In this document: positions 2,127 through 13,044 of the stretch, piece by piece
Layout of the letters: each line of letters starts with the position of its first letter
Numbering within the stretch: position 1 is the stretch's first letter
NCBI GenBank assembly: GCA_018303825.1
Contig: JAGVXK010000022.1
Span: 1-52,616 of the forward strand
Length of the DNA stretch: 52,616 nucleotides
Source: Candidatus Pacearchaeota archaeon
GTDB taxonomy: Archaea > Nanobdellota > Nanobdellia > Pacearchaeales > GW2011-AR1
Reading direction: 5' to 3'
Program-made: the position numbers and the translations under genes
Notes under the pieces: model-generated
Databases searched by the model: none
What the model saw: only the letters and a program-made list of their open reading frames with translations
Told to the model about the DNA's origin: nothing

Positions 2127-2555
2127 TCAATGCGTCCACTCAAAGTCATCGATTGCAACAAGTTTGATGTCTTCATCCCTTCGTTTTAATGGGATTCTTT
2201 CAGGCAAAGAAAATATATCCATACTTGCGACTTTTGCTATCCTTTTCTGTATCTCCATAAAGTCATGCACGTCATTCCAATCCCATGTCGAATTTCTTAG
2301 TTTTCTTCCTAACCTATGCTGTTTAACAAAACTGCAAGGATCCGAAACATATTCCAATCCTATGTTTCTTAACTCATGATTCATAACTTGTACCCAATCA
2401 CCATTTGGTGAATATTTAAAATCTCTAATATCCGCACTAAAACCATAAGATTCCTCAGCACCATCTAAATAAACCAAACTATTTCCTTTATCCTTATAGA
2501 ATCCTCTCTGAAATCTTGACTCTCCATCAAGCAGAGGGAATACAGCTTCTTGCAT
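2127..2555 (-). CDS. Hypothetical cytoplasmic protein (142 aa), candidate immunity/accessory gene of cassette 1
   Basis: ATG ORF with no signal peptide; TATA-like ATTTAAAT upstream; follows the 594-aa gene. Confidence 0.6.
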   Translation of the reverse strand: MQEAVFPLLDGESRFQRGFYKDKGNSLVYLDGAEESYGFSADIRDFKYSPNGDWVQVMNHELRNIGLEYVSDPCSFVKQHRLGRKLRNSTWDWNDVHDFMEIQKRIAKVASMDIFSLPERIPLKRRDEDIKLVAIDDFEWTH

Positions 2556-2653
2556 AAAAGCTACGCTTTATAGTCGTATTTAAATCTTTCTTTTATGTTA
2601 CTCCTTTTTAGAGGCACACAAATAATTCTTATTTATTTTCATAATTTATAGAA

Positions 2654-10241: not shown

Positions 10242-10248
10242 TTTGATA

Positions 10249-13044
10249 TTATTTTTCAGGATTTATTATATTTATTTTTGGTCTAGGAAATAATGTTGTA
10301 GGATTCTGTATTCTTGCATCTCTAGGCACAACAAGATTGATCCTGTATCCTGCTAATGCATCTGCCGTTGCCGTATCAATAGGGATAGAAACATCTTCAG
10401 GATTAATAGGTGCAGCAGGAGTAAGCACTGTTCCTTCTTGGCCTATTACAACAGGCTCAGCAACAGTGTCTGTTGTCCATACAACTCTAAGAGTCTGGCC
10501 GTCTCTAAAATTCGCCTCTTTGACATGCCATCCATGCTTGGACATTTCCAGTCCATCAGGAATATTGCCTATTGCTTTCAGAATAGCTTCTCTTTCAGGA
10601 AGAGTTTTCTCTAAATACCAATTAGCTAATTTGAAGTCATAACTTCCATCTCCATGATATTCATTTCTTAATTCGCTTATGTGGTATTCTTTTAATGTCT
10701 TGCTCAATTCTGAATATATTTTTTGTGTCACTCCATTAAGCACTGTATCTGCCTTGTCAAAAGACCAGACAGCATAGCGCTCCTTGGCAAAAATTCTAAG
10801 AAAACCAGAGGCAAGCACATTTCCAAGAGGTGTTTTTATTGATACTCTTAGTCCAATTACTCCTGGAGGAGCACCAATTATTGATTCTGGCGTGGATTCG
10901 GCAATTGCATTTTTTACAAGCTCTTTAGCAGATTGTGCTAATGCAGCAGCAGCTCTTGCATTTGGATCTTTGCGGCTTGCGCCTATTAAATTTTCCTGCG
11001 CTCTCACTCCAGCAATCATCTTTGCCCTCTCTGCCTCAGTTATTTTGGCGGCATCTTTTTCTGCAATTTTACGAAGTTGGTCTACCATTCTTTTCTGCGC
11101 TCTAGTAACTGCCTTTTCGACAGGTGTTGCCCCAGGGGCATAATTCTCAGCCATAAGACCAGATGCCGAGGATTTAAGCTGAGCCATCGTTGGATTGCCT
11201 GTTCTCTTGGCTGCAGCTGGTCCACCTAAAAGTACAGCAACAAACTGCGATGAATGCAAAAATAATTTATTCCCATCAATCTCTTCCCAACTTTTTAGCT
11301 GATAGCCACCATCTTTTAATACATCTTTTCTAATATCATTTGCTCCTGTAAAAACAAAATATACATATATCGCTGCACCAATCACATAACCTGCTCCAGG
11401 ATAAACAAAATTTCCTCCATGAACAGCGGCAATACTTGCCGCGCCTATTTGTGTCGCTCCTCCGGCAAATGCAAGAATCGGAGCAAGTGCTGCTTCTTCA
11501 ACACGCTTGATAAGTGATGCCTGCGTACATACAAAGTCTCCAGGAGTTGACCTGACCCAAGAAGTTTGTGTTATTTCCTTTCCGGTTTCAAGGTCAAAAT
11601 CAAAAGGAGTTTTTCCAATCTGCATAGAGAATATGTCATATCCATCAAACCCGTCTTTATTGCAGTTAAAATCATAAACTCCCAAAGGACACATAGCATC
11701 AGTTACTAATGAGAGAGGATGAACAGTCCATGCTCTGTAATGTTGATAATCAGGATCTTCCGGTTGGGTAATCCATCCAAGAAGAGGAATATCTTTAAAT
11801 GAAGTTGGGTTCGGACTCCCAGAAGGTATGCCAAGCTTGTACTTCTTATCGTCATCTTCCACTCTATCATCGCAGTCTGGGAAAGATTTGGAAATTTGAT
11901 ATTGCTTTGCAGCCAATTCATTTTCATCTGTCGCAACTTTATATTTTGTAGACCATTTTGGAATGCTGAGGTCACTGGCTATTTGTGTTGGCCTTCCGCA
12001 GAATCCATCCCCATCGGGATCATAGCAGTATGAAGTTCCAAGTTTATTATTTTCCGCTATAGAATATGGTCTTTTAAGGTAATTTTCAGGCCAATCAAAA
12101 ATTGGAAAATCATCTGTCAATTGATCAGGAAAATAAATATCCTCTTCAAATTTGCATGAAGGATCATCCACATCTGCGAATCCAAGGGTAAATCCATTAT
12201 AATTAAATTTAACTTTCACATTCTCATGAGTGACATATTCAACTGGGAGCAAATAATAGCTGTAAGGAAACGTTTCAATAAGCGGCTTTGGTTCAGAATT
12301 GCCCGCATTATCTGCACATTTATCTTTCTTAACGCACTTTGTCTCCCACTTCCATTTCTTGCACTCTCCATTCAGACAATCTGCATTGACATGACAAAAT
12401 TGCCCGATATTAGTTCCTGCAGAACAAAAACCATTATCTTTACTCTTCAGTTCAACAGGCATTACATCCTTCCAGAAATCATCAAATCCCAATTCTCCCC
12501 TGAAAGAATCTATAAATTGTTCCGGATAAAATTCGCTATCCCCCCCAGTATTTCTTTTTTTCCCACTCAGCTCATCATCACTTAAAGGACAGCTTGCAAG
12601 CAGCTTCTGGCTCTCAGCCATTATGTAATATATTGGAGGCGTATAAGGGTCAGAGTCATCATATATCTTTTTATACTCATAAAGCCCGCAATCTGCATTT
12701 AGTTCACTTAGCACAACAGCTTCTCTCTTTGTATTAAAAGAGTAAAGTTTTTGGAATGGAATCCCTCCTGGTTTGTATATATATAAGTTATATTTTTTAA
12801 TTTTGCAATGGCACAAGTTTCCGTCATCAGCATCTATTACACATCCAGCTCTGCATTGCTCTTCATTCTTTTTTGCATAATCCAGATTTGAGCTTTCCAA
12901 ATATCTTTCATAGATACCATAACTGACTGCTCTCTCATAATTTCTGCATGTTTTTTCTGCAGAAACATTATTCATATTTATTATCAAAAGAATTAACGCA
13001 AAACAAACCAAAATTAAAACAAATAAACCTCTTTTATTCACCAT
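10249..13044 (-). CDS. Large secreted protein (931 aa), paralog of the 1108-aa protein over the N-terminal ~500 aa with an unrelated C-terminus; candidate polymorphic toxin
   Basis: Signal NKRGLFVLILVCF; shares NYERAV, SFRGE, KKDKCAD, YCYDxDGDGFCG, YDFNCNKD and TPFDxDLxTG blocks; Gly/Ala-rich hydrophobic segment; different C-terminal domain. Confidence 0.8.
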   Translation of the reverse strand: MVNKRGLFVLILVCFALILLIINMNNVSAEKTCRNYERAVSYGIYERYLESSNLDYAKKNEEQCRAGCVIDADDGNLCHCKIKKYNLYIYKPGGIPFQKLYSFNTKREAVVLSELNADCGLYEYKKIYDDSDPYTPPIYYIMAESQKLLASCPLSDDELSGKKRNTGGDSEFYPEQFIDSFRGELGFDDFWKDVMPVELKSKDNGFCSAGTNIGQFCHVNADCLNGECKKWKWETKCVKKDKCADNAGNSEPKPLIETFPYSYYLLPVEYVTHENVKVKFNYNGFTLGFADVDDPSCKFEEDIYFPDQLTDDFPIFDWPENYLKRPYSIAENNKLGTSYCYDPDGDGFCGRPTQIASDLSIPKWSTKYKVATDENELAAKQYQISKSFPDCDDRVEDDDKKYKLGIPSGSPNPTSFKDIPLLGWITQPEDPDYQHYRAWTVHPLSLVTDAMCPLGVYDFNCNKDGFDGYDIFSMQIGKTPFDFDLETGKEITQTSWVRSTPGDFVCTQASLIKRVEEAALAPILAFAGGATQIGAASIAAVHGGNFVYPGAGYVIGAAIYVYFVFTGANDIRKDVLKDGGYQLKSWEEIDGNKLFLHSSQFVAVLLGGPAAAKRTGNPTMAQLKSSASGLMAENYAPGATPVEKAVTRAQKRMVDQLRKIAEKDAAKITEAERAKMIAGVRAQENLIGASRKDPNARAAAALAQSAKELVKNAIAESTPESIIGAPPGVIGLRVSIKTPLGNVLASGFLRIFAKERYAVWSFDKADTVLNGVTQKIYSELSKTLKEYHISELRNEYHGDGSYDFKLANWYLEKTLPEREAILKAIGNIPDGLEMSKHGWHVKEANFRDGQTLRVVWTTDTVAEPVVIGQEGTVLTPAAPINPEDVSIPIDTATADALAGYRINLVVPRDARIQNPTTLFPRPKINIINPEK

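Follow-up and report, generated by a model that had tools for sequence, protein, structure and literature searches.

We analyzed a 52,616-nt contig of a Candidatus Pacearchaeota archaeon (JAGVXK010000022.1; this whole stretch of DNA is referred to as the window) and, within it, two gene units whose largest products are probably surface carriers for variable effector domains. The contig is archaeal: a small-subunit rRNA gene occupies positions 50964-52616, and genes for L3 and PCNA were identified by Pfam. The source assembly is 806 kb in size and 85.7% complete. An initial annotation, made from the DNA sequence alone, had described two successive units on the minus strand, each made up of a large secreted protein, a secreted partner of ~590 aa and a small cytoplasmic open reading frame (ORF), and all six ORFs are indeed in place:

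4435-7761, minus strand: A1, proposed carrier-effector protein of 1108 aa, with a signal peptide, a Cys-rich ectodomain, a hydrophobic hairpin and a 528-aa orphan tail
2654-4438, minus strand: B1, secreted/anchored partner of 594 aa
2127-2555, minus strand: C1, small cytoplasmic ORF of 142 aa
10249-13044, minus strand: A2, proposed carrier-effector protein of 931 aa, paralogous to A1
8484-10241, minus strand: B2, secreted/anchored partner of 585 aa
7837-8325, minus strand: C2, small cytoplasmic ORF of 162 aa

The A1 stop codon overlaps the B1 start codon, and 7 nt separate A2 from the start of B2. No DNA repeats link the two units beyond a 37-nt stretch within a conserved coding motif. Since this coding stretch is all that recurs, there are no recombination sites between the units. 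A TATA-like box (TTTATATATA, 7777-7794) lies ~30 nt upstream of the A1 start; judging from this box, the two units are probably transcribed from separate promoters.

A1 and A2 align over ~570 residues (30% identity, E 8e-54), of which ~470 are shared N-terminal residues that precede a hydrophobic segment. Every motif that had been listed as common to the two collinear N-termini is visible in this alignment. A Gly/Ala-rich hydrophobic segment followed by unrelated C-termini had also been described; we find such a region at about aa 500-580 of both proteins, and no similarity between the tails that follow it. Both proteins start with a signal-like hydrophobic segment. All cysteines (16 and 21 in the two carriers) are located before or inside the hydrophobic region, and the tails are cysteine-free. 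The two proteins are divided as follows:

6352-7674, minus strand: A1 conserved carrier ectodomain, aa 30-470
6022-6267, minus strand: A1 Gly-rich hydrophobic region, aa 499-580, modeled as a two-helix hairpin with CPTC at the turn
4438-6021, minus strand: A1 variable tail, aa 581-1108, cysteine-free
11569-12957, minus strand: A2 conserved carrier ectodomain, aa 30-492
11335-11502, minus strand: A2 Gly/Ala-rich hydrophobic region, aa 515-570

An AlphaFold2 (AF2) model of A1 aa 28-590, based on a 42-sequence alignment, has a predicted local distance difference test score (pLDDT) of 73.7 and a predicted template modeling score (pTM) of 0.74. The model is confident over most of the ectodomain, with a beta-sandwich in the N-terminal part and a long two-helix hairpin across the hydrophobic region. 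Foldseek returned no match to this model at E<=0.001, and VIA-align matched only a generic helical hairpin (Z about 7), with no clear PDB match for the ectodomain. That these searches gave no clear fold match does not make the fold new. A PDB sequence search with A1 and A2 returned nothing, and scans of A1, A2, B1, B2, C1 and C2 against Pfam, NCBIfam, PADLOC and PHROGs matched only a Cys-rich repeat in the B proteins.

The shared region of the carriers defines a rare family. A search with A1 aa 1-480 against 1.84 billion representative proteins recovered 49 representatives, 37 of them at E<=1e-10. The best relatives have E values of 5e-57 to 1e-30, 16 columns are invariant across 42 sequences, and the family matches to A1 and A2 retain the invariant Cys, Asp and His-Pro positions of the ~440-aa ectodomain. 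Genome records place the family in metagenome-assembled genomes of Woesearchaeota, Nanoarchaeota and Aenigmatarchaeota, which is consistent with the DPANN assignment proposed earlier. The shared region had been described as N-terminal. That holds in this window; in most relatives the region starts 300-1300 residues into the protein, and nearly all of them have, ahead of it, variable Cys-rich regions and a conserved module with "FCQMVDD" at its end. The carrier domain of the relatives is the membrane-proximal part of a longer ectodomain. It is not the secretion region that the initial annotation had taken it for; export is provided by an ordinary signal peptide.

A search of the shared region had been suggested as a test of whether many different C-termini occur on one conserved domain, and this is what we observe. 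Among the 45 family members with a readable C-terminus (one of which, P0042, was re-read by eye), 30 end in a Hint-N stub of ~58 residues followed by a stop codon, and 13 have other, unrelated tails, A1 and A2 included. One further member (P0022) has a complete Hint domain and then a further domain, and another (P0055) is a fragment that breaks off behind the carrier domain. BLAST detects no relationship among the long non-Hint tails, and an HExxH motif is found in 5 of 12 long tails checked, that of A1 among them. As in polymorphic toxins, therefore, these are secreted multi-domain proteins with a conserved part and C-termini that differ between homologues.

The Hint-N stubs led to a second class of genes. 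Each stub opens with the cysteine of Hint block A and matches Hint profiles at their N-terminal positions. On the contig of P0029, a Hint-N carrier, three nearby genes have one common layout: a signal peptide, a Hint part that extends from block B (TxxH) to HN and Ser, and then a variable domain. Ten such cassettes were found at five loci, with signal peptides that have positively charged N-termini:

L016, minus strand, 10972-12456, 12951-14072 and 16410-18104: three cassettes
L018, 11763-13172, 13639-14640 and 15454-16719: three cassettes
L025, minus strand, 14569-15702 and 16633-18198: two cassettes
L020, 2658-4433: one cassette
L009, 4540-5034: one cassette

Nine of the ten cassettes were included in a Pfam scan. 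All nine match PT-HINT above its cut-off, and only over profile positions ~57-137 of 137. The Hint-C half of the cassettes is the C-terminal ~80 residues of PT-HINT and the carrier stub is the N-terminal ~58; together they cover the Pfam profile and overlap only slightly, at positions 56-72. In the same scan, the cassette cargos matched Fic (43.1 bits), AvrB_AvrC (24.2 vs a cut-off of 23.2), PRTase-CE (28.9 vs a cut-off of 27) and, below the cut-off, an anthrax-lethal-factor-like domain (ATLF; 21.9 vs 27.4). One to three cassettes lie within 10 kb of the carrier at 5/5 Hint-N carrier loci, as compared to 0/8 loci with other tails. The whole genomes G041, G043 and G048 have three, one and two cassettes, respectively, and there is no PT-HINT match in the whole genomes G042, G044, G047 and G000, the last being the window's own.

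Cassette cargos and fused tails are related to one another. One L018 cargo (L018c2) is homologous to the tail of P0022 (E 1e-31) and to that of P0057 (E 8e-5), and another (L018c1) to the fused tail at L022 (E 2e-5). Hence, fused tails and cassette cargos draw on one domain pool. The L020 cassette has an additional element: between its Hint-C half and its cargo lies a second Hint domain, which is complete (Intein_splicing, 37 bits). The product of joining this cassette to a carrier would resemble P0022, in which a contiguous Hint domain is followed by a homologous cargo. We also considered that the cassettes might be recombination orphans, in the style of Rhs and contact-dependent inhibition loci. 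This is ruled out by their own start codons and signal peptides, and by the fact that they start where the stub ends.

Together, these observations make it probable that A1 and A2 belong, as paralogous carrier-effector proteins, to a polymorphic effector system specific to DPANN archaea. They are best read as fused carrier-effector forms, the Hint-less equivalent of the split relatives. The earlier proposal of a polymorphic effector system is thus upheld with respect to the varied C-termini, the relatives with PT-HINT, the toxin-like cargos and the RHS partners described below, and is not borne out with respect to the enzymology of the tails and immunity. In the strict sense, membership among polymorphic toxins fails for the window on three points, namely the adjacent immunity gene, the HINT domain and the cassettes. 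Nonetheless, we think it rather likely that the window encodes something that works like such a system.

How might this system operate? A1 and A2 would be exported by a Sec-type signal peptide, the disulfide-rich ectodomain would be exposed, and the Gly-rich two-helix hairpin would hold the carrier in the membrane. The variable, cysteine-free C-terminal domain would be presented outside, as a possible HExxH metallopeptidase in A1 and possibly a GNAT-like acyltransferase in A2. In most relatives, the carrier ends in the first ~58 residues of HINT, the cargo is encoded as a separate secreted cassette with the rest of HINT, and the two halves would probably join or dock outside the cell. The site of action of the cargo would be the interior of a different cell, in all likelihood the host or prey on which the episymbiont depends. 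The secreted partner encoded next to the carrier, which is B in the window and an RHS-repeat protein at other loci, would be a constant co-component of the surface apparatus.

Two lines of reasoning underlie this scheme. First, Fic, PRTase-CE and GNAT-like domains need ATP, phosphoribosyl pyrophosphate and acetyl-CoA, respectively, which implies action inside a target cell. Second, the positively charged signal peptides of the cassettes place Hint-C outside, which places the carrier Hint-N outside and, by analogy, the fused tails as well. An outside location of the tails is consistent with the AF2 hairpin and with a conserved Cys pair after the hairpin in many members. It is in this sense that we infer that the tails are outside the cell, that the halves join, that cargo is delivered into a target cell and that it is toxic there. 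We tentatively extend the scheme to a possibility that we hold with less conviction than the carrier-effector reading itself: A1 and A2 may be the pre-assembled form of an extracellular assembly weapon, in which the carrier is loaded outside by split-HINT trans-splicing or docking, and the hairpin helps the effector into the host. If so, a single modular system for host manipulation would exist in two states, with fused carriers in the window and split carriers in the relatives.

The tails of A1 and A2 themselves offer two leads as to function:

5353-5367, minus strand: HERKH (HExxH) motif, A1 tail aa 799-803, motif alone
10456-10929, minus strand: A2 tail segment, aa 706-863, with a GNAT-acetyltransferase-like fold as a lead from an ESM Atlas structure search

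From its sequence, HERKH in the A1 tail is a possible zincin metallopeptidase site; the last ~80 aa of this tail are predicted to form a helical hairpin. For A2 aa 706-863, the Atlas structure search gave ten rows, each of them a GNAT cluster, with template modeling (TM) scores of 0.40-0.42 by query, and Pfam gives no acetyltransferase match for the A2 tail. The window tails had been likened to the swappable C-terminal domains of polymorphic toxins. We find no demonstrated enzymatic fold in either, only the HExxH motif in A1 and the GNAT-like lead in A2. Pairwise hhalign and BLAST comparisons of both window tails with 22 other tails and cassette cargos detected no relation.

Several observations weigh against the carrier-effector reading. 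Homologue searches with both window tails (lengths 182-1939 aa) returned only A1's own cluster, and neither tail has a family match in Pfam, NCBIfam, PADLOC or PHROGs. Single-sequence AF2 modeling of the A1 tail yielded no usable structure (pLDDT 41), and the Atlas model behind the GNAT lead for A2 is of low confidence (mean pLDDT 0.36, TM about 0.4). A search with the carrier did not find the family in 40 genomes related to the window's own. The window's genome (85.7% complete) has no PT-HINT match at E<=1, no cassette and no recognizable immunity gene. Hence, Hint halves are missing from A1, A2 and the whole assembly and are present in relatives only, and the same is true of the pre-toxin processing domain and the stand-alone cassettes. 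Lastly, a crude hydropathy count gives 1 to 4 membrane passes across the family, and the location of the tails is inferred from the cassettes. Within the 806-kb assembly, only A1 and A2 match a whole-protein A1 query; the A2 tail was not used alone as a query.

A first alternative is that A1 and A2, together with their partners, have a structural or adhesive role at the cell surface, as paralogs that serve in host attachment or resemble a surface layer, with variable ends that diversify binding and no effector function. We regard this as unlikely. It accounts for a neighborhood of 16 kb that encodes secreted Cys-rich proteins throughout and a pilin-like protein, and for an ectodomain that begins with a beta-sandwich; it is also in keeping with the finding of no enzymatic family in either tail and no recognized immunity gene. 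However, relatives place Fic, AvrB-like, PRTase-CE and sub-threshold lethal-factor-like domains on the same carrier by way of a pretoxin HINT, and some cassette cargos are homologous to fused tails. The HExxH motifs in the A1 tail and four other long tails, and the lack of cysteines in the tails as opposed to the cysteine-rich exposed ectodomains, also argue for effectors rather than adhesins.

A second alternative concerns the genes downstream of the carriers, beginning with the partners. B1 and B2 each have a hydrophobic anchor at the N-terminus, and their homology is limited to the last ~240 residues (27% identity, E 1e-13). In both proteins, this shared C-terminal part includes an acidic, Cys-rich repeat that matches TIGR02232:

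2666-3343, minus strand: conserved C-terminal part of B1, ~225 aa
8502-9203, minus strand: conserved C-terminal part of B2

The N-terminal half of B1 is variable. Since this half of B adjoins the variable tail of A, it could interact with that tail. A large secreted gene directly follows the carrier at 12 of 14 distinct loci (window units counted separately). Three of these partners are B-type, namely B1, B2 and the product of a gene that immediately follows the L010 carrier (B2 vs L010, E 3e-12); the other nine are RHS/YD-type, including:

L007, 11221-13800: RHS/YD partner gene after carrier
L013, 13115-14677: RHS/YD partner gene after carrier
L011, 4279-5844: RHS/YD partner gene after carrier
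L018, 8298-10202: RHS/YD partner gene after carrier
L019, 3546-6305: RHS/YD partner gene after carrier
L021, 12401-14758: RHS/YD partner gene after carrier

RHS_repeat is matched by two of seven members of the RHS-type partner family (best E 5.6e-13). We treat the B-type and RHS/YD partners as different families, as a profile comparison of the two gave a probability of 7.6%. An SLT lytic transglycosylase domain (E 4.6e-23) in one RHS-type partner is a hint that bacterial cell walls could be a target. This fits an earlier proposal that Woesearchaeota attack bacteria with large lytic transglycosylases (PMC9723730). A large secreted partner is present whether the tail is fused or a Hint stub; this pairing, regardless of the tail, indicates that the partner is a core component rather than a tail-specific immunity protein or helper.

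The small ORFs lie one gene further. C1 and C2 have no hydrophobic segments and no similarity to each other, and neither was found in the 40 related genomes. No relatives of C1 were found; C2 has one at L010 (E 5e-7), where it is encoded two genes past the B-like gene. The similarity between the carrier of that locus and A2 runs only through the hydrophobic region and helical linker and leaves out the terminal domain, which adds to the points against our interpretation listed above. The initial annotation had made an adjacent small gene part of the architecture. In the window, the gene directly after A1 or A2 is the ~590-aa secreted partner, C1 and C2 are not adjacent to the tails and belong to no recognizable family, and the C2 relative is at a locus with a different tail.

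These data bear on the possibility that the units are classical, kin-directed toxin-immunity cassettes, with the tail as toxin, C1 and C2 as cognate cytoplasmic immunity proteins, and B as a delivery helper. C1 and C2 have some of the expected properties: they are cytoplasmic, mutually unrelated and downstream of different tails, and, like the carriers, they are not found in the 40 relatives. Moreover, cassettes in relatives adjoin cytoplasmic genes, such as that for an ADP-ribosylglycohydrolase beside the PRTase-CE cargo. Nonetheless, a ~590-aa gene and gaps of 98-158 nt come between C1 or C2 and the tails, the L010 relative of C2 accompanies a carrier with a terminal domain that shows no detectable relation to A2's, other fused-tail loci have no consistent small cytoplasmic gene, and neither C1 nor C2 matches a known immunity family. 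We therefore consider this explanation rather improbable for the window.

Immunity genes may be present at the split loci. At their 3ʹ ends, 8/9 Hint-C cassettes are abutted, with gaps of 3-22 nt, by a convergent gene whose product lacks hydrophobic segments. The ADP-ribosylglycohydrolase gene is one of these:

L018, minus strand, 13194-13529, 14652-15281 and 16729-17880: convergent cassette neighbors
L016, plus strand, 10001-10960 and 12576-12941: convergent cassette neighbors
L025, plus strand, 13733-14566 and 15830-16630: convergent cassette neighbors
L020, minus strand, 4436-5431: convergent cassette neighbor

We propose these neighbors as candidate immunity genes in an unusual orientation. 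The lack of a consistent immunity gene at fused-tail loci is expected if the targets are unrelated host cells. Zhang et al. made the same argument, of unrelated host targets and no immunity, for PVC toxins (PMC3482391).

Least probable, and in our view doubtful at best, is that A1 and A2 are transmembrane receptors, in which the ectodomain senses a host or ligand and the tail, separated from it by an odd number of helices, is a cytoplasmic output or regulatory enzyme in the producer: many members do have a long hydrophobic stretch and a third hydrophobic segment followed by a Lys/Arg-rich linker, as the positive-inside rule would require, the tails are cysteine-free like cytoplasmic domains, and GNAT, Fic and PRTase domains need cytoplasmic cofactors, but all Hint-C cassettes start with a signal peptide, so the Hint halves are extracytoplasmic, AF2 gives a two-helix hairpin, and many members have a conserved pair of cysteines behind the hairpin, which fits an outside location.

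Taken as a polymorphic effector system, the family has its closest counterparts in the PT-HINT polymorphic toxin systems (PF07591; PMC3482391). Both combine a conserved presentation part with highly variable C-terminal domains. In relatives of the window proteins, moreover, PT-HINT directly precedes the variable domain, RHS-repeat proteins are encoded at the loci, and there are several stand-alone cassettes with toxin- or effector-type cargos (Fic, metallopeptidase-like). The differences are considerable. The DPANN system is archaeal, whereas polymorphic toxin systems have been reported as rare in archaea (PMC3482391). Its carrier domain has no counterpart in Pfam or NCBIfam, carrier and cargo are separated by a hydrophobic hairpin, and the partners are large and secreted. 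In the relatives, HINT is shared between two exported proteins rather than serving a cassette swap by recombination. The DPANN system has no known immunity family, and the window proteins are without any HINT.

Naturally split inteins (DnaE, Nanoarchaeum PolB) and bacterial intein-like (BIL) domains are comparable in another respect. The halves found in the relatives tile one Hint domain and retain Cys1, TxxH, HN and a +1 Ser. In contrast to these inteins, the relatives export both halves, and one Hint-N carrier is matched by several alternative Hint-C cargos. Set beside the known split sites of inteins, the split in the relatives differs in coming after ~58 residues, just before block B, and the window genes are contiguous fusions. 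We found no description in the literature of exported, naturally split HINT halves.

There are also similarities to contact-dependent toxins of the Rhs, CdiA and MafB types, in which a large surface protein has a swappable C-terminal effector and YD/RHS repeats are present at the locus. In the DPANN system, however, the RHS repeats are in a separate partner and not around the toxin, there is no type V, type VI or type VII secretion system, the carrier is anchored by its own hairpin, and the downstream gene encodes a large secreted protein instead of a small immunity protein. Among archaea, the available description of a hypervariable Ig-domain module in Thermococcales likewise has a large secreted protein in unique combinations with downstream genes, and proposes a role in conflict or self/non-self recognition (PMC8416519). 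As far as that description goes, the domains are unrelated and the lineage is a different one.

The genes upstream of A2 add a further difference between the window and the relatives:

13086-13946, minus strand: pilin-like protein of 286 aa with a class III signal sequence (TIGR02537)
14012-16237, minus strand: secreted Cys-rich protein of 741 aa, with a C-terminal module that precedes the carrier domain in single-chain relatives

The C-terminal end of the 741-aa protein matches P0012 aa 454-553, just before the carrier domain of P0012. As this protein ends in the module that precedes the carrier in P0012, the family ectodomain is split over two genes here, with the pilin-like gene between them. 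With the ectodomain split in this genome, both A1 and A2 have gained a signal peptide of their own. The upstream protein had been called pilin-like; it reaches the archaellin/type IV pilin N-terminal model TIGR02537 at the cut-off (20.1 vs 20 bits), in agreement with that description. After this N-terminus it has a Gly-rich spacer and then a C-terminal Cys-rich domain, which also terminates the B-like partner at L010 (E 7e-8).

DPANN archaea depend on other cells, and how they attach to and manipulate their hosts is largely unknown. The family described here is a concrete candidate: its surface carrier is lineage-specific, a secreted partner constantly accompanies it, and effector-like domains come from a common pool, either by direct fusion or by way of a split HINT. 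The contribution of the window is the fused, Hint-less state, together with the ectodomain split into two genes. If confirmed, the system would supply testable effectors by which uncultured archaea interact with their hosts, and would be of biotechnological interest as a natural means of ligating proteins outside the cell.

Some further features of these loci deserve mention. The carrier loci L007 and L018 are likewise flanked by pilin-like genes. A gene at 164-2107 on the minus strand encodes a secreted Cys-rich protein of 647 aa whose C-terminal part has a membrane helix and a cytoplasmic tail rich in Pro and Arg; one of its Cys-rich modules is common to a protein upstream of the L007 carrier (E 1.7e-6). 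Between the surface-protein island and PCNA, a 517-aa protein (16888-18441, minus strand) has sub-threshold primase small-subunit/PrimPol matches and a ligase-type zinc finger, and is probably, on these sequence grounds, the replicative primase. At L021, a 544-aa ORF (14797-16428), two genes after the carrier (8483-12217), starts with the carrier's own first 35 residues, which suggests a recent partial duplication of the carrier N-terminus.

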